Source: Candidatus Parcubacteria bacterium | Lineage (GTDB): Bacteria; Patescibacteriota; Patescibacteriia; UBA1558; GWA2-36-10 | Length of the DNA stretch: 64,000 bases | NCBI GenBank assembly: GCA_018669975.1 | Contig: JABHSK010000001.1 | Coordinates: 88,394-152,393, forward strand | Direction: 5' to 3' | Shown: piece after piece, positions 3,160 to 32,461 of the stretch | Position numbering within the stretch: position 1 is the first letter of the stretch | Layout: the number at the start of each line of letters is the position of its first letter | Translations under genes and position numbers: made by a program | Notes under the pieces: model-generated | What the model saw: only the letters and a program-made list of their open reading frames with translations | Told to the model about the DNA's origin: nothing | The model's database searches: none

Positions 3160-3738
3160 TTATTCTTCATCTTCTTGATAAATTTCGGGCTTGAGGATGC
3201 CAATCCCAGAAAGATTGCGCAATTGCTGAGCATAGTCCAGACCATAACCGACTACGAAGTCATCACCAATTTCAAAGCCGACATAATCGACTTTAACTTC
3301 TTTTTCACGAGCAGCTGGTTTATCCAGTAAAGTACAGATAGACAATGAGCGCGGCTTACGATCAGACAAAAATTCCTTGAGGTAAGCCAGGGTTAATCCG
3401 GTGTCGACAATGTCTTCAACAATCAGGACGTTGCGACCAGCGATATCGATGTCAATATCTTTCTCAATCTTAACCACACCAGAACTACTAGTAGTGTCAC
3501 CATAGCTAGACACGGCCATAAAGTGAACTTCCAACGGAAGATGCATCGTTCTAATTAAGTCAGCACAAAATACAAAGGCTCCCTTGAGGATGCAAATAAC
3601 CACTAGTGGGTATTCCTCCCCCTCATCTCGATACTCTAGACTAATTTGCTGACCAATCGCTTGGACCCTCCGCTGAATAACAGAATCCGATATAAGACTA
3701 CTTTTGACACTACTAAGCAGATCCAACCCTTTTTTCAT
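3160..3738 (-). CDS. hpt: Hypoxanthine-guanine phosphoribosyltransferase
   Basis: 192 aa with the PRTase motif VLIVEDIVDTGLTL and the HPRT-like C-terminus DYVGFEI..DFVVGYGLDY. Confidence 0.9.
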   Translation of the reverse strand: MKKGLDLLSSVKSSLISDSVIQRRVQAIGQQISLEYRDEGEEYPLVVICILKGAFVFCADLIRTMHLPLEVHFMAVSSYGDTTSSSGVVKIEKDIDIDIAGRNVLIVEDIVDTGLTLAYLKEFLSDRKPRSLSICTLLDKPAAREKEVKVDYVGFEIGDDFVVGYGLDYAQQLRNLSGIGILKPEIYQEDEE

Positions 3739-4172: not shown

Positions 4173-4202
4173 AAATAAAAAAGGTAGCTCCTAGGAGCTA
4201 CC
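4173..4202 (-). terminator. Intrinsic terminator (minus strand) after the radical SAM gene
   Basis: Minus-strand hairpin GGTAGCTCCTAGGAGCTACC followed by a T-run. The same 28-bp TTGACAAAAA... element follows. Confidence 0.6.
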
Positions 4203-4209
4203 CTATTCT

Positions 4210-5037
4210 TTACTGAAGTAAAGAACCGTGTCGAAAAGCAAATCTAAAGCCATAATTTTGCAAATCAGAAATAAAAACTCTAACCTTTTCTTCTGAAGCA
4301 TCAACTAAGCCGTGTTTGGCCAACTGTTGGTTATCATCTAAGAAATTTACCTTGATGAAAACCCTGTCTACGTCAAACAATTTGGCTAATAGAGATACAT
4401 CATAATTCATACTCTCCATGACTACGAAATTAAGTGTAACTCGATTCCCGGGCCAATGATTAGCAACTTCAGCGATTTCCGCTAAAGTCATCATTGGTAC
4501 CTGCGGACTGAGGAAATTCCGTTCTTCGTCAGAAGTGGTATGACAAGAAAATTGCAACCTTAGTTGTATACCTTGCTCGTGCAATTGCCTGAGCCTGACA
4601 AACAGCTTCGGATTTCTAGAACCAGACGTCGACACAACAAAGTGCAGAAAGGGCCAACGAGCATACATTTGCTCAATAGCTTGGCAGGTGTTATCAACAT
4701 TGAGACTGACATCCCCCATTTGCTTGAAGGAAATCTTTACCTCGTCATAACCTGGACTATCCAACGCAAAGTTGGCATGAACCAGTTCTACCTGATTAAC
4801 TATCTCAGCTACTGACAGCTGACGCCAATCTTTAAACTTTCTAGTAAAACAATAGATGCAGCCGATGCCACAGCCAGAGCAAACAGACACGCCAATTTTA
4901 CGAATCAACTTGCCGTCATTTACATCCTGCAGTGTTTTATCAGCTGATAAAACTAAGCTGTCGTCGGCGACGGCTCGGCTTTTATAGCCAGTACCGTCGC
5001 CGATGTCTCTTGTTTGTTTAAGAATCAGCACACTCAT
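4210..5037 (-). CDS. Radical SAM enzyme of unknown specificity
   Basis: 275 aa. CGIGCIYC gives the CxxxCxxC 4Fe-4S/SAM motif near the N-terminus. GC about 48-50%. Only a 14-bp gap to the next gene. Confidence 0.8.
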   Translation of the reverse strand: MSVLILKQTRDIGDGTGYKSRAVADDSLVLSADKTLQDVNDGKLIRKIGVSVCSGCGIGCIYCFTRKFKDWRQLSVAEIVNQVELVHANFALDSPGYDEVKISFKQMGDVSLNVDNTCQAIEQMYARWPFLHFVVSTSGSRNPKLFVRLRQLHEQGIQLRLQFSCHTTSDEERNFLSPQVPMMTLAEIAEVANHWPGNRVTLNFVVMESMNYDVSLLAKLFDVDRVFIKVNFLDDNQQLAKHGLVDASEEKVRVFISDLQNYGFRFAFRHGSLLQ

Positions 5038-5051
5038 GATGCATCCTCCTT

Positions 5052-6086
5052 TTATCCCCGCTCAATAGCAGACAGGATGTCCAGAGCCAACATCAATGTG
5101 TCTTCATCAAAACAAATATCATCACCGACCATTATGTGTCCATAGCCCATCTGCAACAGACATTGAATATCCATAATGTCCGAACAGGTCGGACGCGGAC
5201 TATGGCGCAGTGAAGTCAGAATACGGGAAGCCACAATGGCATCACTGTCCATTTCGGCAATTTTACGCAGTGGCCGTAGTATCTTATCCGGACGACCAAA
5301 CTCCACATACATATCACCACGAGCAGCCATCAAGCCGACACCTGGGAACTTGCGCAGGCACTTACATGCCCAATCAAAACCCTGAGGTGATTCAATCTTG
5401 GCTTTAATAACAGCCTTAGGATCGAGTGCCAACATTTCCTGAATATCACTGTCCTGCTCCACATAGGAAAGCATGAAAGTGTGAATACCCAGTTTAACTG
5501 CTGCTTCAATATAGCGGCGATCCAGTTCGGTGAAATAACCTTCGACCTCAAAACTAGGATGTATGATATTGATAGATTCTCCACCGCCGACGACCTTTTT
5601 TGGGCCTTCAAGCATAATCAGAGTATCACCATCAATCACGTCAACGATGTGAGCTGAGTCATAACCATCCTGGAACCAACACTTGACTGGTCCCTTGGAA
5701 GTATCCAGCTTGATCTTATGGTCAATCTTGAGCGTTGCCCAAGGTGGCGTCCTGAGGATACCATGAGCCTTGGGACGACTAGAATCAAGCACCACAACTT
5801 CATCTCCAAGCTGATAAGCCTTGGGAGGCCTATCAGAACCATTGAAGAAAAAACCGTGTGAAACCCGAACCTGTCGACACTTGAGATCAATCCACATATC
5901 CTTGTCACCGATTTGAGACTTGATAAGTTTGAGCATAGCCGTCAGTGCTTCGACTGAAGGTAAATCATCCTCCTTAACTCCTTGCACCGGCATAACGGTG
6001 TTGAGCCGAACTCCCGAAATAATCGGAAGTTCGGCCACCCTGCCAATGAAGGGAGCATAGGGAGGAATTGTGGTAATCACTTTCAT
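5052..6086 (-). CDS. Pyruvate-kinase-like TIM-barrel protein (truncated PK family, no C-terminal allosteric domain)
   Basis: 344 aa. AKIESPQG, LMAARGDMYVEFG and SPRPTCSDIMDI...GYGHIMVGDD parallel the PK motifs IISKIENQEG, IMVARGDLGIE and KPRPTRAEVSDVANAV..GADAVMLSGE. A PK B-barrel-like insert is also present. Confidence 0.65.
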   Translation of the reverse strand: MKVITTIPPYAPFIGRVAELPIISGVRLNTVMPVQGVKEDDLPSVEALTAMLKLIKSQIGDKDMWIDLKCRQVRVSHGFFFNGSDRPPKAYQLGDEVVVLDSSRPKAHGILRTPPWATLKIDHKIKLDTSKGPVKCWFQDGYDSAHIVDVIDGDTLIMLEGPKKVVGGGESINIIHPSFEVEGYFTELDRRYIEAAVKLGIHTFMLSYVEQDSDIQEMLALDPKAVIKAKIESPQGFDWACKCLRKFPGVGLMAARGDMYVEFGRPDKILRPLRKIAEMDSDAIVASRILTSLRHSPRPTCSDIMDIQCLLQMGYGHIMVGDDICFDEDTLMLALDILSAIERG

Positions 6087-6114
6087 GATCTTTACTCTCC
6101 TCTATGCCTGAAGT

Positions 6115-7146
6115 TTAGGTGAGTTTCCTGCTTTTGAGACTGGTCTTGCCGCCGGACTTCTTACCAACAGCCACTCCATCTGTGCCTCCACCCGCAGATT
6201 TATCCTTGACCGAACGCAGAGACGTCTTGACCCGACTGACACGATCCGGCCGGTCACTATGACGCTTACCAGAACGCAACTCAAAGTCTTCGTACTCGCC
6301 GGCTTCGCCAGCAACGATACCAATGATCATCTCGATGATGTCACGCGGCTTATCCAGGGTAATAACGTTGTCAGTTCCATAGATATCAGTCCAGAAACGA
6401 CGACAACTGGATGTCTTCTTGAACAGCACATAGACCTCAAACTTGTCAGCCAGTCTGCGTAGCACTTCCTTGGAGTTCAGGTTAGCCTGAACATCGTCAC
6501 CAATGTGCTCACGCACATGTGCGGCTTCCAGATTAGTACGTGTCTTGTCGTCCAAAATCCAAACAAAAAGTGGCTTGACGGCATTGGGCATTTCGCAGTG
6601 ATGCGTGAAATAGTAAGCGGCCAAATCATAGCTCTCGGGGCTATCACCGCCACCACCCTCGGGATAGAGCTTCTTAAGCTCACCATCAAGGGGCTTACCC
6701 TTCTTGAAATCCCTGACCTGGAGTGGGAAACTATCATATGCAGAATCCCCAACCAGAGAGAAACATATTTCTCCCTGAGGAATATATCGTTTGGCTTCGT
6801 TGCCCAGCAGGGGCAACTTTTCCAAAATAATACCAACCTCAGTCCTGAAAGATCCGGTGTGATCACAGCAAACCACCAAAGGATGACTACTATTGGTTGA
6901 GACCGCCAGCTTCTTACGCTTGATCGGAGACGGCGTCTTACCGCGAGCTGAAGTGAAGTCATGACTGGCTCGGCTACTACGCGCTGACGAGCGGGCAGTA
7001 GAACGACCAGTGGAACGACCTGAGCTCCGCGTCGGTGTTGTAGACTTCTTATATGCCTTGCGAGCTGAGCGGAAATCTTCTCCGCCACTACGACTGACTC
7101 CTCCAGAAGACGAACTTCCAGAATCATCTTCCCAGCTGTATCCCAT
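6115..7146 (-). CDS. vWA-like (TerY-like) domain protein with Ser/Arg-rich disordered N- and C-terminal tails
   Basis: The MIDAS-like segment LVVCCDHTGSF (DxTGS) and LFVWILDD fit a vWA fold. The N-terminus (SGSSSSGG...RSSGRSTGRSTARSSARSSRAS) is low-complexity. SD GGAGA lies before the internal ATG (MGYSW). The ORF could extend to 7176. Confidence 0.5.
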   Translation of the reverse strand: MGYSWEDDSGSSSSGGVSRSGGEDFRSARKAYKKSTTPTRSSGRSTGRSTARSSARSSRASHDFTSARGKTPSPIKRKKLAVSTNSSHPLVVCCDHTGSFRTEVGIILEKLPLLGNEAKRYIPQGEICFSLVGDSAYDSFPLQVRDFKKGKPLDGELKKLYPEGGGGDSPESYDLAAYYFTHHCEMPNAVKPLFVWILDDKTRTNLEAAHVREHIGDDVQANLNSKEVLRRLADKFEVYVLFKKTSSCRRFWTDIYGTDNVITLDKPRDIIEMIIGIVAGEAGEYEDFELRSGKRHSDRPDRVSRVKTSLRSVKDKSAGGGTDGVAVGKKSGGKTSLKSRKLT

Positions 7147-7230
7147 GTCTTTCTCCCATCGGTTTAACTTGTGCACAATGCACGTGATAGTGAATATAAG
7201 TCTCCGCTATTACCTAAATCTATTAGAAAT

Positions 7231-8019
7231 TTAAGAAACCTTCAGAGTCTCTCCACTGGATCGACCACCAAACAACTCCTGGCGCAAATCCGACAAAGGT
7301 CGAATCAATTCCTGGGCTGTACTGGGACGATCAAGTGGATTACGTTTGATCATCTGACCGATGAATCGCTGCAACTTATCAGGAACAGAGTCCGGAAAAG
7401 TCATACCAATATAGTTACCACCAAGTGCATGAATCATACTTACTCCTAGACCGTAAATATCGGTCTCAGGAATAGGTGGTTTGCCAGCAACCTGTTCTGG
7501 AGCAGCAAAAGCCGGGGTGTAACCCTCAACTTTGGTGCGACTCCGAGGTTTAAGTGTAGCCAAACCATAATCAACCAGAATTGCATTATGTTCATCCGGT
7601 TTGATCATGATATTAGCCGGTTTGACATCACCATGAATAACCCCATAGTAGTGAAGATAATGCAGGGCATTGAGTAGCCGCTGAATCATCCAACACACTT
7701 GTTCGGGATCAATACCTTTCGGATAATCTTCATCAACGATCTTTTGCAGATCTTTACCTTCGATAAAAGTCATAATCATCACAAAACTACCATCATCTAA
7801 CTCGATAAAATCTCGTAGAGTCGGCAATGAGTGATGATGAACATGCCAGAGAAGTTTAGCTTCTTTCTTCAGAAGCTCAACATCTGCAACACTAAGATCT
7901 ATATTCTGTTTAATGCAAGCCATCTCGCCTAGAATTCGATGCCGAGCTAGATAAGTTCTAGCAAAACCACCTTCACCAATCTGCTTAAGCACCTTATAGT
8001 TTCCTATAATAGTAGCCAT
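7231..8019 (-). CDS. Hanks-type Ser/Thr protein kinase
   Basis: Motifs GEGGFARTY (Gly loop), HGDVKPANIMI (catalytic loop), DYG (DFG variant) and APE. A perfect SD AAGGAGGTGA lies before the MATIIGNYK start. Confidence 0.9.
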   Translation of the reverse strand: MATIIGNYKVLKQIGEGGFARTYLARHRILGEMACIKQNIDLSVADVELLKKEAKLLWHVHHHSLPTLRDFIELDDGSFVMIMTFIEGKDLQKIVDEDYPKGIDPEQVCWMIQRLLNALHYLHYYGVIHGDVKPANIMIKPDEHNAILVDYGLATLKPRSRTKVEGYTPAFAAPEQVAGKPPIPETDIYGLGVSMIHALGGNYIGMTFPDSVPDKLQRFIGQMIKRNPLDRPSTAQELIRPLSDLRQELFGGRSSGETLKVS

Positions 8020-8029
8020 TGTCACCTCC

Positions 8030-8761
8030 TTACTCTCCAGAGAAGAGTCTTTCTGCCAACCAACTTGGAAGATCGTGTTTGTAAATAGCATCAGCTGTTT
8101 TCTGAATATCATAAAAAACCCGTCGTAGGTCAAAATAAAATTGACCCTCACGAATTTCTATGACTGCATAGCAGGCTCGACAATCTCCATCACGGGGTTG
8201 TCCAACACTACCAACATTAATCAAAAACTTCTGCTCTCCTGCCAACAACATATCCTCAGTAATGTCCTTAATTAAACCCTCCTCGCTTCCAAAAATAAAT
8301 GGAATGTGAGTGTGTCCAACAAAACAAAGCTTCGTCTGAAAATGTGGAATTTCTTCCCGAGCTCTATCAGCTTCATCGATATAATCCCAGTGATCAGAAA
8401 AAGATCCGTGCGCTAGGGTTATATCAAGCTCTGGCAAAACTAGGTTGTAGGGCAATCTGGCAATAGCTGCTTTTTCCGCAACATTCAATTGCTGATCAGT
8501 AAACTGCACACCAGTCAAAGCGCTACCATTAAAATATTTTGCAGCAAAATCAAGATCAAGAAGACCCTCTTCGTGATTACCACGAATCATATCCGTAGCC
8601 ATTACACAGGCTGTTTCCCAGCAGGCTCGCGGTTGCGGGCCATAGCCGATAATATCACCTAAAAAATAAACTGCATCAATGCGCAGTTCTTTTAGATCAT
8701 ACCAAACAGCCTTGAGAGCTTCCCAATTACTGTGGACGTCTGACAAAACAGCTATCCTCAC
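8030..8761 (-). CDS. Calcineurin-like metallophosphoesterase (PPP-family Ser/Thr phosphatase, PrpA/ApaH-like)
   Basis: Motifs DVHSN, GDIIGYGPQP and RGNHE. GTG start preceded by SD AAGGAGGT. The stop is 10 bp upstream of the kinase start, indicating an operon. Confidence 0.85.
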   Translation of the reverse strand: MRIAVLSDVHSNWEALKAVWYDLKELRIDAVYFLGDIIGYGPQPRACWETACVMATDMIRGNHEEGLLDLDFAAKYFNGSALTGVQFTDQQLNVAEKAAIARLPYNLVLPELDITLAHGSFSDHWDYIDEADRAREEIPHFQTKLCFVGHTHIPFIFGSEEGLIKDITEDMLLAGEQKFLINVGSVGQPRDGDCRACYAVIEIREGQFYFDLRRVFYDIQKTADAIYKHDLPSWLAERLFSGE

Positions 8762-8997
8762 GTCTTACCTCCTTTTTTAAGCTTTTTTGACTTGTTTTCG
8801 ACTTGTCAAAGTACATTAATATCCCCTAAATTAAATACTTAAGAGAATGTAGTTTTTTACCATAAAAGCAGGTTAGCGTCAAGGAAGGTAAGTAAAATGC
8901 ATATCTTTGACTTTTTTTACTTAAACATGCTATTTTTATGCTGGAATATATGAGTAAGTCCCCTCATGTTCAACCCGCACTTTGAAAGGAGAAAGAT

Positions 8998-9639
8998 ATG
9001 AATCAATGGATGGATAAGTTTAAGAAAATGGGTGCTCTCTGGATACACGATGAAAATCCTGAGCGACCACATGCTTTATTGACTTCAGGCAAACACTCCA
9101 ATGGATACTTTAATGGCAGTAAAGTCATAAAAAATCCTCGTGTTCTAGCTGAGGCCTGCCATGATCTCTTGCAGATCAGCCATGCTGCTCAATTTACACC
9201 ACGATCTGTGTTTGGATCAGCTATGGGTGCCGTGACGATTGCTCACGAGCTGGCCAGGCAAATGGGTATCGAACTTGGCTTTACCGAGCCTGTCGAGACC
9301 AGGGAACAACTAGACATTACCCGCAAACACATGGTCCTCAAACGCTTTAGTGTTGTTCAAAACGAAAAAGTGATTGTGGCTGAAGATGTTATGACTACAG
9401 GTGGTACTACCAGAAAGACTATCGAGACACTGACAAAAACGGGAGCTGATGTGCTCGGCTTTATCCTTGTTTTGGTAAACCGTTCTGGTCAAGAATCTCT
9501 TGACGGCCGACGCATCATTGCTTTAATCGACCATCCTATGCCTTTCTGGGAAGCAGAAGAGTGCCCATTGTGTGCTCAAGGCTCCGAAGCTATCCGCCCC
9601 AAAGGCAGAGAAAGCTGGCAGGAATTAACTGCTCAATAG
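8998..9639 (+). CDS. Type I phosphoribosyltransferase (orotate-PRTase-like)
   Basis: 213 aa. The PRPP-binding motif VIVAEDVMTTGGT and the OPRT-like LLTSGKHSNGYF are present. RBS AAAGGAG. GC about 48%. Transcribed divergently from the phosphatase. Confidence 0.7.
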   Translation: MNQWMDKFKKMGALWIHDENPERPHALLTSGKHSNGYFNGSKVIKNPRVLAEACHDLLQISHAAQFTPRSVFGSAMGAVTIAHELARQMGIELGFTEPVETREQLDITRKHMVLKRFSVVQNEKVIVAEDVMTTGGTTRKTIETLTKTGADVLGFILVLVNRSGQESLDGRRIIALIDHPMPFWEAEECPLCAQGSEAIRPKGRESWQELTAQ

Positions 9640-16110: not shown

Positions 16111-16252
16111 ACTATATCAACATCAAAGACCGAACCTTTAAAACCCCGTCTTTCAACAGTCAGTTCAGAGATAGATTCAATCAATTGTAGTGTTAGTGAC
16201 CCCTATGGGTCGAGTTCAAACCCGGGCAAAAGCCCAACAAAAGGAGCTTCAC

Positions 16253-16966
16253 ATGAAGACCAATCTGATTCGTATCGCCATCCTCTTCGCTGTCATCTTC
16301 ACCACCACCTTCGCCTTCGCCGGCAACACCGAGGTCACCTTGACCGACGAGATGCAGGCGCAGCTCGACGAGCTGATCCTGGCGAAGAATTTCGCCGAAG
16401 CCGACACGCTGCAGATGCAGTTCGAAGCGCAGTTGCGCAGCGATCAGCGAAACAGCAAGCGTATCGAGGAAGCTCGAGCCCGCACAGAAAAGCGCTGGCA
16501 CGCCGAAGTGTCCCCCGACTCGATGACCTATGACAAGGTCTGGCAGTGGGCCGACAATGATTCGACCAAAGCCACCTGGCTGGGCAAGCGCTACAACGTC
16601 GAGTTCGACGAGAACCTGGATACCACTGGCATGATCGATGCTCTCAAGAGCACGATCAACCAACGCCAGGCCGACCGGGTCGTCAACGACAAGATCAACT
16701 CCGCCGTGGCTCGTTCCGAAGCCAAGACCAACAAGCGTATCACTGATCTGGAAAACCAGATCGAACCTATCAAACGCGCGGTCAACCAGCTCGGTTACGA
16801 CATGGGTGCCTCCTTCAGCTACGCTGCCTGCATCAAGCATGTGGACGACGAAGTTCGCCAGGAGAACCTGGACAAGATCGCCGAACTGCGGAAGGCTTTC
16901 CGCGAACAGACCGATCCTATCCTGGAAGAATCCACCAAGAACAACGACAAGACGGACAACGAGTAG
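16253..16966 (+). CDS. Secreted coiled-coil protein of unknown function, about 58% GC (compositionally foreign)
   Basis: RBS AAAGGAG, then ATG and the signal peptide MKTNLIRIAILFAVIFTTTFAFAG. GC3 is above 80%, unlike any neighbour. All six frames are open in this block. Confidence 0.7.
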   Translation: MKTNLIRIAILFAVIFTTTFAFAGNTEVTLTDEMQAQLDELILAKNFAEADTLQMQFEAQLRSDQRNSKRIEEARARTEKRWHAEVSPDSMTYDKVWQWADNDSTKATWLGKRYNVEFDENLDTTGMIDALKSTINQRQADRVVNDKINSAVARSEAKTNKRITDLENQIEPIKRAVNQLGYDMGASFSYAACIKHVDDEVRQENLDKIAELRKAFREQTDPILEESTKNNDKTDNE

Positions 16967-17063: not shown

Positions 17064-20000
17064 CTAGACACTTGGACTATCAAAACCTTTTAAACGTATC
17101 GCCACTTCTTTATCTATTATCTCCATACCCTCTCTTAAAGATATGGCTCTAGGATTAGTAGTATCCTTTCCTATAGCTGCTAACTGTGCTTCAGTAAATG
17201 CTTTTACTTTACTAAGATAATCAACATCATAATCATTAATTTTAGCTAGTTCAAAATTCAAACTCTCTTTTCCTGCATTAAGAGTGCCAATCGCATAATC
17301 AATCGGATCCATTGGTTTTTCAACACTAGTCTCTACTCCTGTTGATTGTGTTACTTTAGTATCACTACTAACTCCATCCTCATGTTTAACATCTATTATT
17401 TTATTATCTTTATCAAGCACTAAATTATCTACACCCCCATCTTTATCAGTAACTTCCACATCTAGAAGATCATTATGTGTTGTAATTTTAATTGTGTCTG
17501 TCACACCCTTATCTTCAGGTGATATACCTAGAGTATCAGCTGCTTCTTTGGAAAATACTATAGGACCTGTTCCTGGTACATCTAAACTACCTCCTTTGAA
17601 AGCAATACCCCGCTCTGCCATAACCTTAAAGGCATTATTATCAATATCCACTTTTATATTTGGTGGCAAGTCTGCGGACTTAGTTTCTAACACTGGTATT
17701 GCATCAGTAGTTAGTGGTGTTTCTACAACTTTTGGCATCTCCTTAGTAGATAAGTCTGGCTGAACAGTTTTTGGAACTACATCAGCTGATACTGCCTTCG
17801 GATCAGTAGTAACTGCCGCAACTTCAGGTGATACACCACTTGATTGACTATCAGGAGTAGCTGTGGAAGCCTCTGGTCTCTTCAAACTAAAAGTCTTATC
17901 ATTGTCTAATTCTATCCTTTCGGTTGCTAATGGCACCTTCCCATCAAATACCTCTTTCATAGCATCAGCATCCTTGATTGCATCTGGTACACCATCACCG
18001 TTTATATCTATATAAAATAAATCTTTGCGCATAAAACGGGCATCATGGCGAACTAAGGCATATTTTTCTCCAACTGCCACCGGCACCCATTCTTTATCAC
18101 CGCTAGCTTGATCAAAAGCAAATTCCATTTCTCGATAATTTCTAGTAACGTTAGATTCAAAAGCGCCCATTAGCCTTTTCATACTACCGTCATAATTTCT
18201 GAGCTCATCAGTGCCATACAATTTAGATATCTCATGCAAAAAGACGACTCTCTTATCATCGCCCATATTATTATCCTTAAAATAATCCCCAACGAACTGT
18301 TCTAATTGTTTAGTATTATTATCACTCAACATCTTATGTAAAACATCATCTAATTTTCCATCTGCTTTAGCTACGGCATACATGTCATTACTATACTCTG
18401 TATCACCTACTAGAAAACCATCGATTTGAGTCTTTACGCCCTCCACCCTAGTTAATTCTGCCACACGAGCATCTTCAGTAACCACCTCTTCAGCAGTCAT
18501 GGCAACATTACGCTCTTCCATAAATACCTTGAGCTGTTCAGTGCTCATTTCTTGATGAGAACCATCTGGCATCACTACATTTGGATTACCATCACGATCC
18601 CAATCATAAACTTTAACAACGCCATCTTCTGTTTGTAAACTAACAAACTGATCACCAGTTTGAGCGTCCATCTGCACCTCATGCTCTACACCTCCTTCAA
18701 ACTTGGTATCAGAGAAAAATTTCTCTACATTTGTATCAGATAGATGACTAGCGTTTATTCCTGATGCATCATCAAAACTTAAGACAGGTTTGCCATTAAC
18801 TATGTCTATTTTTACTACATCATTATCATGAACCAAATCAGCTAAATTACCTCCCTGTTCGGCATTTAATCCATTAACTGCGCTAGCTGTTTGTGCTTCA
18901 GCCCACCTTGATAGTTCTGCGGCATCATTAAGGTCACCTTTATAGCCTAGAGCTTCGGCATTGCCCGTAAATATAGCTTTGGCTGATCTCCAAATAGAAT
19001 CTGAACCACTGCTCATCTCTGATGAATCTATAGTGTCCTCGAAATGAGTTGGTTGTTCTTGAGCTACAGTTGTACCTGACTGCATAGATTCGTCTACACC
19101 TTCTGTTGAAACACCTGTTTCACTTGAATCCATAGATGGTGCAACGTCAGATTTCCAAGGATCAGGATCACTCTGACCAGATTTCCAAGGATCAGGCTCA
19201 TTTTTCCAATCTGATGTGCCTTTATATACCTCTGGTGCACCCCCTTCATTACTAGAACTAGAATCTACTTCTGGCTCTCCCACCACCACTTTACCTAAAG
19301 CTTTATCAAGTAATCCTGGACCAAAAAAGGAAGCCGCGCCACCTAATATAGCACCACCTGCCATAAATAATAATTTACGACGTTTAGTATGTTTTTCTAT
19401 ACGAGATACATCTACCTCAACTTGTTCTCCCAATTTTTTAGTATTACTACCGACCTGTTCTAGGAGACCAGTCAAGGTATCCTGATTTTTCATCTCTATT
19501 TTATTTACATTATGTACAAAATTTTCTGCCCTACTCTTGAGCAGTGGATTTGAATCTAAAATACCTAACTCTAATTTACTCTTGACAAAGATACTACCTT
19601 CTCTCAAAAAATCTAAATTTTCAACTGGAAAATTAATATCCTCAATTTTTGCCTCAGCCTCCTTCAGCATCTCACCAATTTCACCAAAAACTTTTTGCTC
19701 TTGCCTTAAATTCCTGTCCTCTGCTAGCATATAACCCATACCTGCACCACCCACAGCGCCTAATGCAACTCTAGTGGTACCCTCTAATCTAATAGCAGCA
19801 GAAACAGCAGCGCCAGTTAAGAAACTATAAGCATCATATTTATGTTTATCCCAGAAACTTTTTTCAGCTTCAGTTGCATCTGCTGGCAAGTCATCTATCT
19901 TGCCAGTGGCACTAAAGAGATTATATTTTTTTATATATCCATAAACAGCCGGATTATGATTCTTGAGTTCATCTAGCCTGGTCTTAGCCTCTGAGTTACC

Positions 20001-23000
20001 TCTTCTATGCTGACCAAGAGTCAATGCTAACTGCACAGCCATATTATGTTTTTCCAGGGCTGTAATATCGCTACGCTCTCCACTTGGATACATAGCTTCT
20101 ATTTGCACTAAAGCTGACTTATAAAGACCTTGTTCAATTTTATCTAAAGTGGAAGCCTCTACCTCTACATGGCCAGTCGCTCTAGCTTCTTCAAAAGCAA
20201 CATCTAATTCCTCCAAGGCTACGCCGCTAGTTTGCTCACGTACAGTATTGCTTATGTGTCCACTTAATTTACGTTTAAATTCTTCCGTGTTCTTAAATAA
20301 TTCTACCAAAAGAGCATCTTTCTTCTTTTCAACCTCTTCTTGTTCTTTAGCTTTGGTCTTTTCAAGATTACCCGTTTCTCTTTTGCCTCTTAATTTTCTA
20401 ACTAGTAAACGAACCCCTGAAACTGCTGAAGATGAAATACCAACTGAGGCAAGTCCTCCAATGCCACCTGTAAAAGCAGTGATAGCAAATGAACCAGCTA
20501 TAACCAGTGCTGCATCTACTGCTGCCCTAGCAGCTAGGCGTTTTACTTTTTTTGCACTTAGCAAAGCCATTTCCTGCTGAGCAGCCATATCTATAGTCTG
20601 CTGAATGACTTCATTGATTCTCTCTGCTACCTTACTTAAATCATCATCTGACAACAATTCTTGATCTCCCTGTTGTTCTAGGATATCCTTTATCTTTGTC
20701 TTATAAAAATTAACAATCTTTTCTTTAGTATTTTGTAATACTCTTTCAGCTGCATATAATTTTTGGCTGGCTTTTTCTGCCTCTTCACTAACCTTCTCTA
20801 TAGCAGCTGTTATTTTTTTAGCATTTTCCTCTCTAATTTTTACTAGACTTTCTTCAGCGCTTTTAGCTTTTACCCTGACTTCTGCTAATTCTTTTCCTAA
20901 CTCTGCAACCTCTTTATCATCACTAGGCACTAACTCTGCGGCAGCTAAATCACTCTCAAGCTCAACAACCTCCTTGGATAAAGATGTCACCACAGCTTCT
21001 GCAGCTCTAATTGGTTCTTCTGCCTCTCGGATAGGCTTGTTGGCTATATCTAATTCTGCTTGAGCAGCAGTCACTGCCTTACCAGCCTGCCTATACTCAT
21101 CCATAAAACCTTTAAGCTCTCCTATCTCTGATTCTTCTAAACTCTCAAAAATCATCCTCGGATGAATATCTAAATAACCAAGTTGTTTTTCCAGTTCTTC
21201 TTGAGAAAAAACAGTTGGTACTTCTGGAACAGCCTCTGCAGTTGTTGTAGCCTCTTCAGATTCCGCATCTGCTGCTTTTTCTTCACCTGACTCCACCTCA
21301 GTAGTCGCTGGTTCTTCAGCAACTGGCTCAACATAATTTTCTACAATTTCTGAATCTGTAATTTTCTCACCATCAGCTTCTCCTTTATGCTCAAATTTAC
21401 CACCTGTCTCTATTTTAATAACGCTACCTGAGACTTCACCATAAACTCTCAAGGTGGCACCATCTCTAACTGTAATATCACAACCAATAAGATCTCCGAC
21501 AGATAAAATTATGTATCGCTTCAAATCTTCCGTTTCACCATTAAGCATTTCATACTCTTTATCCTCTTCGGCAGTCTCTGTAGTTGTAGTTTCTGTGACT
21601 GTCTCAACTAGAGCTTCTTCAGATGTACCTACACCTGCATCTCCCAAATCTATACTCCTTTCGTTTGCGATACGTAATATTGTATCTTGAGCCCGTTCAA
21701 CATCTTTTAACTTTTGTTCAAGAATAGCCTTTTTCCTCACATCTTTTTCTTTACTAGCCTGCCCCTTATATAATTCAAGATCTTTTAAATTCTTTGCAAA
21801 AAAACGTTGAATCATCTCTGGTGGCGTTTTCTCTAAAGCAGCTTCAAGATACTGCTGTGATCGTACACGGAGTGCGTCAATTTGCTTCAACGACTCTTCA
21901 CTTAAATCTTTTTTAAGTGAAATACCAAGTTTTTGAAATATCTTATCTTCAATTGAATTATAATCTCTTCTTAATTTGTCCCATTCTTTTGCATCTATAT
22001 CCCGTTGAAATAGTTTCTCTGCTTTTGCGCGTAAGCCACCCTCCTCTGATATACCTTCACTTGTACCAGTTCCCTGCATATAGTCAGACAAAACATAAAA
22101 AGCATCTTCATTAGGGCCATCACCTACCTTAGTTACTAATTCTTCTAATGATTCTGCATCATATTGTTGTTCAGCGGTGGTTTCTGTAGCTGTATCAGCT
22201 ACACCCGCCTCTTTAATAACTTCTGATTCATGCCCTGCTGGTACTTCAGGTATAATTCCACTACCTTCACTTGTAGCTGGTGTTGGTGACTCTACTGACT
22301 CTGCACTATCTTCATCAGACACTTCAGAACCGTAAGGTTTTAAAATAACACCTGCTTCAACACTTAATTCTAGAATTCCTTGTGTCGTATCATCATATGC
22401 TGCTTGAATTTCTACTTTTATAGCCTCTACGTCATCGCCTGAACTGTCTTCAATAATTATCAAACTTCCTTCTTCGAAGGCTGCTACGAACTCATCCATC
22501 TTAAGATGAATTTTTCTAAGTTTCTCTATGTCCTCAGGTTTAAAACCCTCATGCTCCAAAACTAATCTTGCAAGCTCCACTTGACTCTTCAAGTCTTCGG
22601 TTTTATTAATCAAAAATTCTCTAGCTTCTTCTAATATCTCAGATTTTTTTTCTATATCATGTTCAGCATCACCCACAGGCACTTCATCAGCTGGCGTAGA
22701 CTCTCTATCAAAAGATCTACTATGTTGCTTGATATCAGACATAGTCTCTGCGCGCTTCTCTGCTACCTGTCTTTTGACTTCACCCTCATCTATAGACTCG
22801 ACTGATTTAGATTCAGTCAATTTAGCCAGGGCAAATTCTTTGTATTCATCAAAAAGTTTAGCGATTTTACTAGTTACCGAAACAATTTCTACATGAGCAA
22901 CGGGAGACTCACCTTCTGCCTTAGCTTCACACTGAGCAATAATCTCATCTGCAGCAACTTGAACTTCACTAATTTCAGCAGTAATAAATTCTGAAAAACT

Positions 23001-23063
23001 TAATTGTTCTGGTGATTTTTCACCAGTATCTAATGTGTCTTCTTTGGAATGTTTTCTTGCCAT
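17064..23063 (-). CDS. Giant (1999 aa) acidic coiled-coil membrane protein with C-terminal Ca-binding DxDxDG motifs
   Basis: One uninterrupted ORF. The N-terminal 900 aa are E/K/D-rich coiled coil. Three Gly/Ala-rich TM helices lie mid-protein. The region includes a tandem EPDPWKSGQSDPDPWKS duplication. The C-terminal part contains DINGDGVPD and DWDRDGNPN calcium-binding-like motifs. Confidence 0.85.
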   Translation of the reverse strand: MARKHSKEDTLDTGEKSPEQLSFSEFITAEISEVQVAADEIIAQCEAKAEGESPVAHVEIVSVTSKIAKLFDEYKEFALAKLTESKSVESIDEGEVKRQVAEKRAETMSDIKQHSRSFDRESTPADEVPVGDAEHDIEKKSEILEEAREFLINKTEDLKSQVELARLVLEHEGFKPEDIEKLRKIHLKMDEFVAAFEEGSLIIIEDSSGDDVEAIKVEIQAAYDDTTQGILELSVEAGVILKPYGSEVSDEDSAESVESPTPATSEGSGIIPEVPAGHESEVIKEAGVADTATETTAEQQYDAESLEELVTKVGDGPNEDAFYVLSDYMQGTGTSEGISEEGGLRAKAEKLFQRDIDAKEWDKLRRDYNSIEDKIFQKLGISLKKDLSEESLKQIDALRVRSQQYLEAALEKTPPEMIQRFFAKNLKDLELYKGQASKEKDVRKKAILEQKLKDVERAQDTILRIANERSIDLGDAGVGTSEEALVETVTETTTTETAEEDKEYEMLNGETEDLKRYIILSVGDLIGCDITVRDGATLRVYGEVSGSVIKIETGGKFEHKGEADGEKITDSEIVENYVEPVAEEPATTEVESGEEKAADAESEEATTTAEAVPEVPTVFSQEELEKQLGYLDIHPRMIFESLEESEIGELKGFMDEYRQAGKAVTAAQAELDIANKPIREAEEPIRAAEAVVTSLSKEVVELESDLAAAELVPSDDKEVAELGKELAEVRVKAKSAEESLVKIREENAKKITAAIEKVSEEAEKASQKLYAAERVLQNTKEKIVNFYKTKIKDILEQQGDQELLSDDDLSKVAERINEVIQQTIDMAAQQEMALLSAKKVKRLAARAAVDAALVIAGSFAITAFTGGIGGLASVGISSSAVSGVRLLVRKLRGKRETGNLEKTKAKEQEEVEKKKDALLVELFKNTEEFKRKLSGHISNTVREQTSGVALEELDVAFEEARATGHVEVEASTLDKIEQGLYKSALVQIEAMYPSGERSDITALEKHNMAVQLALTLGQHRRGNSEAKTRLDELKNHNPAVYGYIKKYNLFSATGKIDDLPADATEAEKSFWDKHKYDAYSFLTGAAVSAAIRLEGTTRVALGAVGGAGMGYMLAEDRNLRQEQKVFGEIGEMLKEAEAKIEDINFPVENLDFLREGSIFVKSKLELGILDSNPLLKSRAENFVHNVNKIEMKNQDTLTGLLEQVGSNTKKLGEQVEVDVSRIEKHTKRRKLLFMAGGAILGGAASFFGPGLLDKALGKVVVGEPEVDSSSSNEGGAPEVYKGTSDWKNEPDPWKSGQSDPDPWKSDVAPSMDSSETGVSTEGVDESMQSGTTVAQEQPTHFEDTIDSSEMSSGSDSIWRSAKAIFTGNAEALGYKGDLNDAAELSRWAEAQTASAVNGLNAEQGGNLADLVHDNDVVKIDIVNGKPVLSFDDASGINASHLSDTNVEKFFSDTKFEGGVEHEVQMDAQTGDQFVSLQTEDGVVKVYDWDRDGNPNVVMPDGSHQEMSTEQLKVFMEERNVAMTAEEVVTEDARVAELTRVEGVKTQIDGFLVGDTEYSNDMYAVAKADGKLDDVLHKMLSDNNTKQLEQFVGDYFKDNNMGDDKRVVFLHEISKLYGTDELRNYDGSMKRLMGAFESNVTRNYREMEFAFDQASGDKEWVPVAVGEKYALVRHDARFMRKDLFYIDINGDGVPDAIKDADAMKEVFDGKVPLATERIELDNDKTFSLKRPEASTATPDSQSSGVSPEVAAVTTDPKAVSADVVPKTVQPDLSTKEMPKVVETPLTTDAIPVLETKSADLPPNIKVDIDNNAFKVMAERGIAFKGGSLDVPGTGPIVFSKEAADTLGISPEDKGVTDTIKITTHNDLLDVEVTDKDGGVDNLVLDKDNKIIDVKHEDGVSSDTKVTQSTGVETSVEKPMDPIDYAIGTLNAGKESLNFELAKINDYDVDYLSKVKAFTEAQLAAIGKDTTNPRAISLREGMEIIDKEVAIRLKGFDSPSV

Positions 23064-30028: not shown

Positions 30029-31057
30029 TTAGGGGTTATTACCCACATTAAGATCCTGCATGAATCCTTCGCCACCGGCGGTCATATCGAGCTTTCCAGC
30101 CTCGATGATGGTTGTGGCGGTCTCCACATCACAATAGTTGATGTAGATAGTGCCTGCCGGCTTAGGTTGCCAGAAGGTCAATTCTTCCGAATCAGGATGG
30201 ATACGCTGGTTGACACGAGCTCCAGCAGCTACTTCGATTTGGGGTGCAGATTCAAGACTACGGGTCGAGGCTCCGATCAACGGACCTCTACTACTAAACC
30301 TCTTGACTCCGAGATTACCCCTACGATAGCGGCCACCGTAACTGTGTCCACCACCGGCAAAACCGACATCACCTAAGAGATCTCGGTAGACAGACGGCGG
30401 CGGAGCCGGTCGTTCTTCCCGACTGAGGTAGAAAGCAATGCCAATGGCAAAGACTCGCTCAGCTCCGATGACCTGAGCAGCCACACCACGCATCATTTCC
30501 TCAGTAAAGTAGAACTGACGGACTACACCGTCCTTAGCTCGGAAGCCATCCAACCAGAAACTCCCACGGGGAGTAACATTGCTGGCCAGATAATTCTGGG
30601 AATCCCACTTGAAGCCGCAGTCTGCGCAAAAACGCTCGTGACCGAGCTTGGTGCCGTGTACCGGACAATTGTCATGGTACTGCTCCAAGGAGTGGTCATC
30701 TACCTTGCGACCTGTAATGGCGTTGATACCCTGAACTGAAACCAGAGCTGCCACATGGTGAGTGTGTCCGGCATTGCCGTTGAAATCCAACCAGAGTCCG
30801 TGTTCCGACATAACCGGGACAAAGAAACTGGCAGCATCGGCATTGCCACGCATCCAGGAATCTGGACATGCCAGATACTCGTCAACTGCAAAGGCAGGAC
30901 GTCGGTTGTAGGGCGGTAGGCCTTGAGCTACCTCATTGCCTGAGCCATCATCCCGACGCTTGAGCGCCTTAGGCATGTTGAGAGTACAGGTAAGTCCGTT
31001 GATGGACATTTCGGTGCTACCACCACGTCCGCTGGCAAAAGGGTCGTTGGTACTCAT
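30029..31057 (-). CDS. Hypothetical protein, about 55% GC, with CxxH...CxxC zinc-ribbon-like motif
   Basis: 342 aa. RBS GAGGAG before MSTNDPF. Contains CPVHGTKLGHERFCADCGFKW and a Gly/Arg-rich segment GGGHSYGGRYRRGN. No family recognized. Confidence 0.6.
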   Translation of the reverse strand: MSTNDPFASGRGGSTEMSINGLTCTLNMPKALKRRDDGSGNEVAQGLPPYNRRPAFAVDEYLACPDSWMRGNADAASFFVPVMSEHGLWLDFNGNAGHTHHVAALVSVQGINAITGRKVDDHSLEQYHDNCPVHGTKLGHERFCADCGFKWDSQNYLASNVTPRGSFWLDGFRAKDGVVRQFYFTEEMMRGVAAQVIGAERVFAIGIAFYLSREERPAPPPSVYRDLLGDVGFAGGGHSYGGRYRRGNLGVKRFSSRGPLIGASTRSLESAPQIEVAAGARVNQRIHPDSEELTFWQPKPAGTIYINYCDVETATTIIEAGKLDMTAGGEGFMQDLNVGNNP

Positions 31058-31152
31058 TATCGATCTCCTCGTTTAGTAAACCAAAGATTGGTGCGGCGGG
31101 ACGGTCAGACCGTCCCGCCGCGAAATCACCCGATATTTACTAGACACTAGGT

Positions 31153-32031: not shown

Positions 32032-32461
32032 GTGTCTCTCCTTTGCTCTCAAGCTCTCTCTCGCTCTTAGCAAATCTTTTTCACCTGATAAACCTCAGGT
32101 AAAGCCGACGAGATATCAATGTATCCTCCCTCCTTTCCTGTCGAAAATTGACCCCAAGGGTCAGAAAAAGACCCTCGGAATTTCCGGTAAAACTAGATTC
32201 TACCGGCCGAGGAGTTAAACCCCTATTTTAATACAAATAAGAAACTAACTCCTGACCAATAAAACCTATATTTATTAAGGTACAAACGTTAGACATTATA
32301 ATAAAATCAGTGCTTTGTCAATTCTTATTTATTATAATAAAAAATGTTTAAAGTGGCTATATTGACAAAAACATCAAATATTATTAAAGTACTCTATTGT
32401 TATATTCAGCAAAGAAAAATCCTGAAAAACTCGTACCTTTAAAAAGGAGAAAAAACTAGGC

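Follow-up and report, generated by a model that had tools for sequence, protein, structure and literature searches.

A conserved kinase, vWA adaptor, and pyruvate-kinase-like gene cassette in a Parcubacteria genome, and its candidate role in the control of purine-nucleotide enzymes

Introduction

Several described systems encode a vWA protein together with a kinase and phosphatase or with a remodelling partner. According to the summary in PMC11090510, which draws on Anantharaman et al. (2012) and Gao et al. (2020), the TerY-P system consists of a TerY-like vWA protein, a PP2C phosphatase, and a Ser/Thr kinase bearing a C-terminal zinc-ribbon or OB-fold fusion. The vWA-STPK-FHA-PP2C signalling operons of Actinobacteria and Deinococcus, for example DRA0331-0334, encode a vWA protein and a Ser/Thr kinase with a cognate phosphatase, as outlined in bioRxiv 10.64898/2026.01.23.701218. 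In the MoxR AAA+/vWA pairs of chaperone and co-chaperone, such as CbbQ/O and NorQ/D, and in the ternary systems of Kaur et al. (2020; PMC7159879), a vWA/MIDAS protein bridges a target enzyme and a partner with a remodelling or regulatory role.

Here we analysed a locus within a 64,000-nt stretch (the window) of contig JABHSK010000001.1 from a Candidatus Parcubacteria genome. The locus resembles TerY-P in that the genes for a MIDAS-bearing vWA protein, a Hanks-type kinase, and a phosphatase are adjacent and co-directional, and a phospho-switch is plausible in both. However, the window vWA protein comes from an unrelated sequence family matching no TerY, vWA, or PADLOC model; the phosphatase is an optional metallophosphoesterase, whereas TerY-P has PP2C; the kinase is a bare 264-aa domain with no zinc-ribbon or OB fusion; and the cassette has no ter genes, its constant third partner being a pyruvate-kinase-like (PK-like) enzyme. 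The original prediction had likened the locus to TerY-P, but it has neither the TerY-type vWA, nor the PP2C, nor the kinase fusion of that family, and the resemblance holds only as an analogy.

The vWA-STPK-FHA-PP2C operons, as the preprint outlines them, differ from the window-type module in having FHA and PP2C components and another vWA family, whereas the latter is linked with a nucleotide enzyme and has a J domain in most lineages. The bridging role of the vWA protein in the MoxR systems is what we propose below for our module, and the NorD vWA domain is among its structural neighbours; in contrast, the cassette has no AAA+ ATPase, and the partner is a kinase or pseudokinase, often J-bearing, which would imply Hsp70 rather than MoxR. 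In PHROGs, the window vWA, kinase, and PK-like proteins fall into three separate families (phrog_2971, phrog_2361, and phrog_25828), the first and last with no functional description, in a family library that carries no gene-order information. In the literature searched, we found no description of the kinase, vWA, and PK-like trio and no paper on the vWA family.

Results

Operon structure and base composition

The minus strand from 8761 to 4210 forms a single operon of five genes (Table 1), ordered metallophosphoesterase, Hanks kinase, vWA/MIDAS protein, PK-like enzyme, and radical SAM protein, with intergenic gaps of 4, 84, 28, and 14 nt. An AAGGAGG ribosome-binding site was read from the sequence ahead of the GTG start of the metallophosphoesterase gene at 8761 (a pattern match only), and a terminator-like hairpin, beginning 6 nt past the stop codon of the radical SAM gene, closes the operon. 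The original prediction of three near-abutting, co-directional genes for a vWA-like protein, a kinase, and a phosphatase was thus correct for the genes themselves, whereas the unit that it described was one gene short.

Table 1. Features of the cassette in the window
Feature	Coordinates	Strand	Evidence
Promoter-like site, 5' of the operon	8945..8973	-	Consensus scan and sequence reading; pattern match only
Gene 1, calcineurin-like metallophosphoesterase, 243 aa, Metallophos_2 / 3rqz type	8030..8761	-	Pfam, PDB matches
Gene 2, Hanks-type Ser/Thr kinase, 264 aa	7231..8025	-	Pkinase profile
Gene 3, adaptor protein, 343 aa	6115..7146	-	AlphaFold2 model, Foldseek, homologue alignment
Adaptor N-terminal motif MGYSWEDD...EDFRSARKAY	7048..7146	-	Conserved in alignment A1; translation checked
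DHTGS, MIDAS-type DxTGS motif at the end of strand beta1	6850..6864	-	Translation checked
Adaptor C-terminal tail LKSRKLT (consensus [ST][KR]xL + hydrophobic residue)	6118..6138	-	Translation checked
Gene 4, pyruvate-kinase-like enzyme, 344 aa, A (TIM barrel) + B domains	5052..6086	-	PF00224, AlphaFold2, Foldseek
Gene 5, radical SAM protein, 275 aa, RlmN/Cfr-like core, truncated	4210..5037	-	Radical_SAM 1e-7
Terminator-like hairpin, 10-bp stem, then T-run	4181..4204	-	6 nt past the radical SAM stop codon

Against 35.5% GC for the window, the vWA gene has 51% and the PK-like gene 47%. The kinase and phosphatase genes have 42.6% and 42.2%, and the value of about 50% originally given for the whole triad is therefore confined to the vWA and PK-like part. 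Further GC-rich patches are present elsewhere in the window. The neighbours within about 5 kb of the triad encode the PK-like and radical SAM proteins, HPRT, an OPRT-like protein, and LexA; as predicted, no ter genes (terD/terC/terB) were found among the neighbours tested over this distance, nor were restriction-type loci.

Conserved core and its distribution

The order kinase, vWA, PK-like was kept in about 30 loci that were fetched and compared by tblastn and ORF clustering (L001-L021, L026-L031, L041-42, and the window; near-duplicates among all loci counted in this work are L002-4, L005/6, L007/19, L010/11, L039/40, and L041/42). The constant partners of the vWA gene are thus the kinase and the downstream PK-like gene, and ORF clustering identified no further gene family common to all core loci. 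The sole locus without a PK-like gene, L022, has a broken vWA gene and retains only kinase and vWA in this order. For roughly two dozen further vWA matches, the longest contig had the same length as that of a PK-like match. Hosts of the core trio are CPR bacteria, Vulcanimicrobiota, Woesearchaeota chromosomes, and huge phages of up to 623 kb.

Two branches were distinguished. In the phage and archaeal branch, the kinase (clade B) has an N-terminal J domain; in the bacterial branch that includes the window, the kinase has no J domain and a phosphatase gene is usually added upstream. The full five-gene form occurs in three genomic contexts (the window, L027, and L028); a close relative, P0002, has the flanks of the window. 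Compared with the Vulcanimicrobiota locus L001, identity is 61% for the kinase, 45% for the vWA protein, and 57% for the PK-like protein. The raised GC content, and the fact that the kinase and PK-like proteins share 57-61% identity (vWA 45%) with those of a bacterium of another phylum, point to horizontal transfer.

Hanks-type kinase

The window kinase matched Pkinase over residues 10-207 (2.2e-35; 122.8 bits, cutoff 31.7), as expected for the predicted Hanks kinase. Its start was placed at the ATG at 8025 and not at the GTG at 8151, because the homologues measure 260-264 aa. The ~55 residues past the profile match gave no separate domain match and align with the kinase fold plus a short conserved FGRxxS tail; neither a J domain nor another fused domain was found by Pfam in the 264 residues. 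Family members from 28 loci retain the C-x-K lysine, an alphaC Glu, and the HGD-KP-N, D[YF]G, GYTP, and PE motifs, and the window kinase, with these catalytic residues intact, is probably of the active type. Cassette kinases from phages, archaea, and Vulcanimicrobiota share 41-61% identity with it, and it matches phrog_2361 (serine-threonine kinase) at 5.6e-36.

The kinase also bears on a reading as anti-phage defence of the TerY-P or another type, in which the vWA protein, kinase, and phosphatase would sense infection and trigger an abortive response. Besides the triad layout shared with TerY-P, its domain scored well on the PADLOC models mad6 (5.7e-43) and PD-T4-6 (2e-37), the cassette is GC-atypical, and a sister cassette on an Acetobacter plasmid lies near an AbiEii toxin gene. 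However, the kinase matches reflect generic kinase-domain similarity (NCBIfam MADS6 gave 102 bits against a cutoff of 460), and PADLOC gave no match for any of the other four operon proteins, for the vWA protein not even at E<=10. The operon has no PP2C, zinc-ribbon/OB fusion, nuclease, or membrane effector. In addition, the cassette is commonest in the genomes of phages themselves (18 IMG/VR contigs, LR745208, and L031), and cellular copies sit among housekeeping genes such as those for ribosomal proteins, LexA, and HPRT. We therefore regard defence as very unlikely.

The vWA adaptor protein

The gene 3 product had no Pfam or NCBIfam match even at E<=10, four diverse homologues likewise had no Pfam or PADLOC match at this threshold, and the profile of the family alignment (A1) had no match among PDB sequences. 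The family was sampled as 70 homologues and comprises 1867 cluster representatives (50% identity) at E<=1e-3; the window member matches phrog_2971 at 3.3e-24. Its AlphaFold2 model had a pLDDT of 83, exceeding 90 for core residues ~70-320, and the Foldseek neighbours were the vWA domains of integrin beta-I, TFIIH p44, and NorD (E from 1.5e-7 for the best to 4e-6, probability 1.0), with VWFA proteins of BFVD matching at 5e-12. The product is thus predicted to fold as a three-layer alpha/beta/alpha vWA domain, in line with the original prediction. The 57 homologues of alignment A1 all have D95, T97, S99, and D199, and nearly all have E171. In the model, strand 90-95 is followed by helix 98-110, and strand 193-198 by D199, so that the protein appears to carry a MIDAS-type residue set at the ends of beta1 and beta4. 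In mycobacteriophage Nappy gp261, an intein lies directly ahead of the MIDAS-Asp strand; inteins tend to occupy functionally important sites.

The layout of the adaptor is a conserved N-terminal peptide, a Ser/Arg-rich linker, the vWA/MIDAS core (~85-320), and a C-terminal [ST][KR]xL tail. The predicted disorder of the Ser/Arg-rich tails was also borne out: the N-terminal 94 residues are 37% Ser+Arg, and residues 1-60 and 321-343 are of low confidence in the model (block-mean pLDDT 42-57). Ser/Arg-rich linkers go with the presence of the phosphatase in a comparison of only four loci with two. The Ser of the N-terminal 'SAR' motif is variable in alignment A1. The C-terminal tail was present in most adaptors listed for kinase-type loci and in a DUF4350-type variant, and absent from all six vWA proteins of PurA-type cassettes whose ends were read.

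Pyruvate-kinase-like enzyme

The PK-like protein matched PF00224 (9.7e-13; 48.3 bits, cutoff 30) and phrog_25828 (1.4e-6). Its AlphaFold2 model (pLDDT 90.3) retrieved only pyruvate kinases among the best 50 Foldseek matches (E 3e-19, TM up to 0.72). The residues R27, N29, D67, K69, R74, K230, E232, D258, and S287 are invariant, and the enzyme appears to retain the PK fold and the PEP/Mg catalytic residue set, as judged from the model and from an alignment to PykF. The A + B fold and these residues are common to canonical pyruvate kinases (PykF, PykA, and PKM). The PK-like enzyme differs from them in being ~130 residues shorter, without the C-terminal allosteric/tetramerisation domain, in changed K+-site residues and MLSGE motif, and in that its gene always adjoins the kinase and adaptor pair. 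In the model, the chain stops after the last barrel helix; no other Pfam family was found at E<=0.01, and the PK C-terminal domain is therefore missing. The score against TIGR01064 was 50 bits for a cutoff of 306, far under the NCBIfam pyruvate kinase cutoffs. Some sources give this protein the name 'pyruvate kinase'. It could be a mere housekeeping pyruvate kinase of reduced genomes.

Accessory phosphoesterase and radical SAM genes

The predicted calcineurin-superfamily phosphatase was recovered (Metallophos_2 2.2e-18, Metallophos 3.2e-13; motifs DVH, GDIIGYG, and GNHE), and these matches agree with the claim that it is not a PP2C. The assignment to the PPP type was overstated, since the best models are Metallophos_2/YfcE, the best PDB match is the metallophosphoesterase 3rqz (full length, 4.6e-37), and the PrpA/B protein-phosphatase model NF008516 gave 17.8 bits against a cutoff of 326. 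The entry 3rqz gives no function. Weaker matches were the phage NinI-like phosphatase family phrog_246 (1.4e-9) and 3qfm (1.4e-8), which we take to be SapH, an Ap4A hydrolase/phosphodiesterase. By comparison with the nearest solved relatives 3rqz and 3qfm, the substrate could be a nucleotide instead of a phosphoprotein. The gene lies 5' of the kinase gene in the P0002 context, L027, L028, and L030, four bacterial loci with differing flanks where the homologues of all three predicted genes are co-localized in the same order, and is absent from L001, L029, and every phage and archaeal locus. The phosphatase is an accessory gene limited to part of the bacterial clade.

The radical SAM protein has a CxxxCxxC motif and matched TIGR00048 at 1.2e-19 (70 bits, cutoff 290). 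It is distinct from the housekeeping RlmN of the window (35798-36796), and neither of the RlmN mechanistic cysteines (E. coli C118 and C355) is present: in the alignment to that RlmN, the first position is Gly and the region of the C-terminal Cys is missing. The gene recurs only in the P0002 context, L027, and L028, is found in no phage or archaeal locus, and is an accessory of the CPR clade.

These two genes bear on a reading as small-molecule or modified-nucleotide biosynthesis, comparable to the nucleoside-like pathway proposed at ter loci, in which the phosphatase, PK-like, and radical SAM proteins and flanking PRTases would make a product under the regulation of the kinase and vWA protein. 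Genes for a radical SAM protein distinct from RlmN, the PK-like enzyme, and a phosphoesterase lie side by side with two flanking PRTase genes (8998-9639 and 3160-3738), and the OPRT-like gene is also GC-elevated (46%). However, the radical SAM gene is limited to a CPR subclade, only the window and its close relative have the PRTases, the operon terminator separates the cassette from HPRT and orf82, and the core has no biosynthetic logic apart from the PK-like enzyme. Such a pathway seems improbable, if slightly less so than defence.

Sister cassettes and adaptor variants

In 14 loci, the vWA gene is followed by a PurA-like gene instead. This sister cassette, in the order J-pseudokinase, vWA, PurA-like, was found on plasmids of Rhodococcus, Tsukamurella, and Acetobacter, with a NUDIX gene following only on the actinobacterial ones, and without NUDIX in Bixzunavirus mycobacteriophages (gp260, gp261, and gp263 in Nappy). 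The kinase homologue of the PurA-type cassettes has lost both the catalytic Asp and the DFG motif and is catalytically dead, so that phosphorylation is neither the original role of this partner nor one shared by all its forms. The HPD motif of its J domain is retained all the same.

In a DPANN variant, read at the single locus L043, the J-kinase gene is followed by PK-like and then by the adaptor gene, and this adaptor combines a non-vWA, DUF4350-like central domain with the same N- and C-terminal motifs as the vWA adaptor. The A1 HMM matched the first 57 residues of this protein (E 6e-8), and nine non-vWA adaptors of this type share a contig with a PK-like match. The terminal motifs are thus portable between central domains, the core usually being the new vWA/MIDAS family and, in some DPANN archaea, DUF4350-like. 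Eukaryotic members of the vWA family are fused to a U-box or NUDIX domain and have no cassette.

The cassette could also be read as a phage-derived host-takeover or counter-defence module that would restore the adenine-nucleotide pool through a mini-PK or PurA-like + NUDIX output, with the J-(pseudo)kinase and vWA protein recruiting host Hsp70 as a regulator and the cellular copies being domesticated. Many huge phages carry the cassette, as do 201 Mycobacterium phage records (Bixzunavirus where checked), its output enzymes all act on purine nucleotides, HPD-bearing J domains outlast kinase activity, and NAD/nucleotide salvage genes lie near the cassettes of L031, L041, and Rhizobium phage TM39. 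However, no link of the cassette to any defence system was found; the window version has no J domain, is chromosomal beside LexA/HPRT, and is kept in synteny in a relative, with cassette proteins of 81-88% identity; and the archaeal chromosomal copies lie beside ribosomal protein genes. This reading is possible but doubtful, and it overlaps with the regulatory module proposed below rather than excluding it.

Discussion

We propose that the cassette is a mobile regulatory module through which a purine-nucleotide enzyme, here the PK-like enzyme, comes under the control of a kinase and a vWA adaptor, and we assign this reading a probability of about 0.5. Its mechanistic steps are all drawn from gene order and conserved motifs. 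The vWA protein would be an adaptor or regulatory subunit that docks the kinase through its constant terminal peptides; in versions with a J domain, these peptides may also present the vWA protein to Hsp70. The MIDAS face of the protein would bind the downstream nucleotide enzyme or a ligand. In the window, the kinase and phosphatase may add and remove phosphate on the Ser/Arg-rich adaptor tails or on the PK-like enzyme, and this phosphorylation would switch a PEP-dependent NTP-regenerating enzyme devoid of the usual allosteric C domain. The cassette would then act like a vWA-kinase-phosphatase phospho-switch such as TerY-P, outside that family, and the module would be mobile and possibly phage-derived.

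More tentatively, the known forms together may represent an unrecognised bacterial, archaeal, and phage module in which a (J-)kinase or pseudokinase and an adaptor with constant termini couple Hsp70 and/or phospho-signalling to purine-nucleotide enzymes, so that huge phages and ultra-small symbionts could control or restore the adenylate pool. If true, the known systems of metabolic takeover or counter-defence would gain a new class.

Despite the size of the vWA family, none of Pfam, NCBIfam, and PADLOC has a model for it. The constant pairing of its gene with those for a kinase and a pyruvate kinase without the C domain suggests a novel mode of control over the last step of glycolysis. ATP in CPR bacteria and DPANN archaea is thought to come largely from fermentation, and this step matters in both; huge phages appear to have taken up the same kinase-vWA-PK-like module. 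Since the sister cassette occurs in Bixzunavirus and on plasmids of Rhodococcus, Tsukamurella, and Acetobacter, the family is open to study in culturable systems. Taken with the U-box fusions of eukaryotes, the portability of the terminal peptides points to a general adaptor principle, in which a binding domain is tied to protein-modifying or chaperone machinery.

Gene organization of the cassette operon

The minus-strand phosphatase, kinase and vWA-like genes of the original prediction, which had grouped them as a triad resembling TerY-P, were all present in the window (see table), and HMM searches recovered a Metallophos_2 and a Pkinase domain in the first two, respectively, with no Pfam, NCBIfam or PADLOC match to the vWA protein. 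The vWA gene is followed after 28 nt by a pyruvate-kinase-like (PK-like) gene and, after a further gap of 14 nt, by a radical SAM gene. By sequence pattern, the phosphatase gene has a promoter-like site upstream of it as well as a ribosome-binding site, and a hairpin with a 10-bp stem and a T-run begins 6 nt past the radical SAM stop codon. The small gaps together with these putative initiation and termination signals indicate a five-gene operon (8761-4210). A longer kinase ORF starting at GTG and overlapping the phosphatase gene was rejected, as kinase homologues run 260-264 aa. The divergently transcribed OPRT-like phosphoribosyltransferase gene, also elevated in GC (46%), adjoins the cassette in a close relative (the cassette proteins compared are 81-88% identical), but not in other cassette-bearing genomes; the flanking phosphoribosyltransferase genes, present solely in the window and this relative, were rejected as cassette members.

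Coordinates of the operon genes, other window features and cassette-related loci in other genomes
Feature	Length (aa)	Position	Strand	Observation
Calcineurin-like metallophosphoesterase	243	window 8761-8030	-	Metallophos_2 2.2e-18; 3rqz full-length 4.6e-37; 3qfm weaker, 1.4e-8
Hanks kinase	264	window 8025-7231	-	Pkinase 2.2e-35
vWA protein	343	window 7146-6115	-	phrog_2971 (function-unknown phage family) 3.3e-24
PK-like gene	344	window 6086-5052	-	
Radical SAM gene	275	window 5037-4210	-	
OPRT-like gene		window 8998-9639	+	
Canonical RlmN		window 35798-36796	-	both mechanistic cysteine motifs present
GC-rich patch		window 30029-32073	-	
GC-rich patch		window 33592-34656	+	
GC-rich patch		window 16190-16966		
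ORF	1999	window 17064-23063	-	acidic, repeat-rich
Woesearchaeota cassette protein	367	L043 6068-7171		
Sister cassette, Rhodococcus plasmid		L044 3744-7828		
Sister cassette, Acetobacter plasmid		L045 3824-7012		
Sister cassette, Tsukamurella plasmid		L046 3702-7847		
Bixzunavirus Nappy gp260-gp263		L023 3610-8217		
Nappy gp261 insertion	~240	L023 ~5345-6100		intein-like
Eukaryotic vWA-family member		L032 8001-9233		
NAD synthase, NUDIX-NMNAT fusion, NAD kinase		L041 145-6956		near cassette
NAD synthase		L031 11731-13464		near cassette
PRTase-like and NMNAT/NUDIX genes		L025 540-2143		near cassette
NADAR-domain gene, Vibrio phage Va1		L024 3050-3700		1.1 kb upstream of vWA gene

Fold and conserved motifs of the vWA protein

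Searches with the vWA protein found 70 homologues, of which 57 were aligned. The residues D95, T97 and S99 of the DxTGS motif were invariant in this alignment, as were Q143, F147, E163, G166, A189, D199, W252 and R295. An AlphaFold2 model built from the alignment had a pLDDT of 83, exceeding 90 over residues ~70-320, and its Foldseek matches in the PDB were integrin beta-I domains, TFIIH p44 and NorD (E 1e-7 to 4e-6, probability 1.0); the viral structure library returned VWFA proteins and one mycobacteriophage homologue. In the predicted structure, strand beta1 is followed by DxTGS and strand beta4 by D199, as expected for a MIDAS, and the nearly invariant E171 may be the counterpart of the integrin-beta MIDAS glutamate. 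Ser and Arg make up 37% of the N-terminal 94 residues, and both tails are modeled at low confidence. Taken together, the homologues, alignment, model and fold matches show that the predicted vWA-like protein with a MIDAS-like motif and Ser/Arg-rich tails had been described correctly in every structural particular.

The protein had no match in Pfam, NCBIfam or PADLOC, nor in a profile search of PDB sequences, and a search at E<=10 with the protein and four diverse relatives still gave no Pfam or PADLOC match. Single-sequence PDB matches to designed 'Cake' proteins and nucleoproteins were discounted, being confined to the low-complexity tail. The Ser of the 'SAR' motif was not adopted as a phospho-acceptor because S, D, E, K, A and G all occur at this position.

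Conservation of the kinase, vWA and PK-like genes

Cassette loci were retrieved by exact-protein look-up and pattern scans and compared in tblastn searches and by clustering their ORFs. The gene order kinase, vWA, PK-like was kept in the window, on a Vulcanimicrobiota chromosome (L001), in L029 and in three CPR loci (L027, L028 and L030), as well as on the Woesearchaeota chromosomes L002-4 and L041-42, where it lies beside ribosomal protein genes. The same order was observed in 17 of 18 IMG/VR viral contigs, including contigs of 318-442 kb, the exception being L022, where the vWA gene is disrupted and the PK-like gene missing, and in the 485-kb uncultured phage LR745208 (L026) and the 623-kb contig L031. 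For about two dozen further vWA matches, the longest contig was of the same size as that of a PK-like match. ORF clustering found no other gene family common to these loci. A conserved fourth gene downstream of the PK-like gene was sought in L001, L029, L030 and L002 and none was found, since the genes there differ: a TPR lipoprotein in L001 and L029, a 403-aa unrelated protein in L030 and a PhoU/AbrB-like gene in L002. The kinase, the vWA adaptor and the PK-like enzyme thus form a conserved cassette and are its invariant triad; we regard this conserved gene order as very likely.

Among the loci compared, the phosphatase gene was confined to the window, its close relative, L027, L028 and L030, and the radical SAM gene to the first four of these. 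The phosphatase-kinase-vWA grouping is therefore real and recurring, but in one bacterial subclade; the unit in the window is the five-gene operon, and the triad that is invariant includes the PK-like enzyme rather than the phosphatase. A modified-nucleotide biosynthetic cluster, which the radical SAM and phosphoribosyltransferase genes would bring to mind, is very unlikely, as neither gene is conserved with the cassette.

The catalytic motifs were conserved in all 28 kinases compared. Kinases of the phage and archaeal branch are ~330-350 aa long and carry an N-terminal J domain with its HPD motif; the J domain is absent from the bacterial branch that includes the window. Genes of NAD metabolism often adjoin the cassette (see table).

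By analogy, the cassette might work like TerY-P and other vWA-kinase-phosphatase switches. However, it fails every defining TerY-P sequence feature (PMC11090510). A TerY-P-type defence system is highly improbable: the PADLOC support amounts to generic kinase similarity, the cassette has no effector, and its commonest carriers are phages themselves. A literature search covering the kinase-vWA-PK cassette, phage J-domain kinases and vWA proteins with PurA turned up no account of the cassette among the papers that could be searched.

We infer that the cassette is horizontally mobile, because its GC content is 42-51% compared to 35.5% in the window and because its kinase, vWA and PK-like proteins are 61%, 45% and 57% identical to those of a different phylum (L001). 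No tRNA gene (ARAGORN) or Rfam family (gathering threshold) was detected in the whole 64 kb window, and thus no integration-site signature was found. Further GC-rich patches, reaching 55% GC where the background is 35.5%, contain ORFs of 258-354 aa without a Pfam match and may represent additional horizontally acquired islands.

PK-like enzyme and radical SAM protein

The AlphaFold2 model of the PK-like protein (pLDDT 90) had pyruvate kinases as all of its top 50 PDB fold matches (E 3e-19, TM up to 0.72). The PEP/Mg residues R27, N29, D67, K69, R74, K230, E232, D258 and S287 were invariant across 50 homologues and 27 loci. The protein terminates after the barrel, lacks the C-terminal allosteric domain and scores far under the NCBIfam pyruvate kinase cutoffs. 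The radical SAM protein combines an RlmN/Cfr-like core with a CxxxCxxC motif, and both RlmN mechanistic cysteines are missing from it in an alignment to the canonical RlmN encoded elsewhere in the window, whose presence identifies the cassette protein as a separate, truncated paralogue.

Portable terminal peptides

The Woesearchaeota locus L043 encodes, in this order, a J-domain kinase, a PK-like protein and a 367-aa protein whose central domain is not vWA. The ends of this protein match the vWA family (N-terminus MSYSWGSDT...GGFDYGSAK..Y, C-terminus SKRLI), and the vWA alignment HMM matched its first 57 residues with an E-value of 6e-8. About twenty close relatives (P0341-P0360) have the N-terminal motif and most also have a basic [KR]xL-type C-terminal tail; nine are on the same contig as a PK-like match, and in two of these cases the locus tags are adjacent. 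Neither terminal peptide is present in more distant homologues of the central domain, among them proteins of Asgard archaea and Planctomycetes, one annotated as DUF4350 (PF14258). Being common to vWA and non-vWA cassette proteins and missing from distant homologues, the termini appear to be the cassette's constant handles, with the central domain as an exchangeable binding module. Among the vWA proteins paired with PurA-like (adenylosuccinate-synthetase-like) proteins, those whose ends were read have no [ST][KR]xL tail.

Distant vWA family members and a sister cassette

When 1.84 billion cluster representatives were searched with a profile, 1867 matched the vWA family at E<=1e-3, of which 523 reached E<=1e-30, and homologues occur in 201 Mycobacterium phage records. 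In Bixzunavirus Nappy the gene order is gp260 kinase-like, gp261 vWA, gp262 and gp263 PurA-like; a vWA gene followed by a PurA-like gene was also found in Vibrio phage Va1, Rhizobium phage TM39 and eight IMG/VR contigs. The order J-pseudokinase, vWA, adenylosuccinate synthetase was found on Rhodococcus, Tsukamurella and Acetobacter plasmids, with a NUDIX gene after the synthetase solely in the first two among the sister-cassette loci. The kinase homologue of this sister cassette keeps the HPD motif but no longer has the catalytic Asp or the DFG motif. The Nappy gp261 insertion, which starts with Cys and ends with SSN then Cys, splits the vWA domain directly before the beta4 strand 'CIFIGDE' bearing the MIDAS Asp; other Bixzunavirus phages have a vWA protein without it.

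Some of the longer family members are fusions, with a C-terminal U-box in P0164, P0175, P0182, P0191 and P0207 and a NUDIX domain in the MMETSP transcript P0181. Only for P0181 and L032 is a eukaryotic origin apparent, the latter contig also carrying Mito_carr, La and ribosomal L35Ae genes.

Proposed function

We consider the combined reading, a cassette in which adaptor and kinase control a nucleotide enzyme, to have a probability of roughly 0.5. The adaptor would dock the kinase via its terminal peptides, and its MIDAS face would engage the nucleotide enzyme or a ligand. In the CPR version, the kinase, together with the phosphatase added there, would reversibly phosphorylate the Ser/Arg-rich tails of the adaptor, or the enzyme itself, and phosphorylation would control a PK-like NTP-regenerating enzyme deprived of its allosteric domain; this specific phospho-switch is proposed tentatively, at odds clearly below even. 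A phage takeover or counter-defence module restoring adenine nucleotides would be compatible with the combined reading, but has no tie to any defence system and appears rather unlikely. Under adaptor- and kinase-based control of a nucleotide enzyme, the J-domain versions may add or substitute Hsp70 recruitment, in line with the U-box fusions and with the J domain being kept even next to a catalytically dead kinase. The sister cassette is present in culturable hosts and phages.
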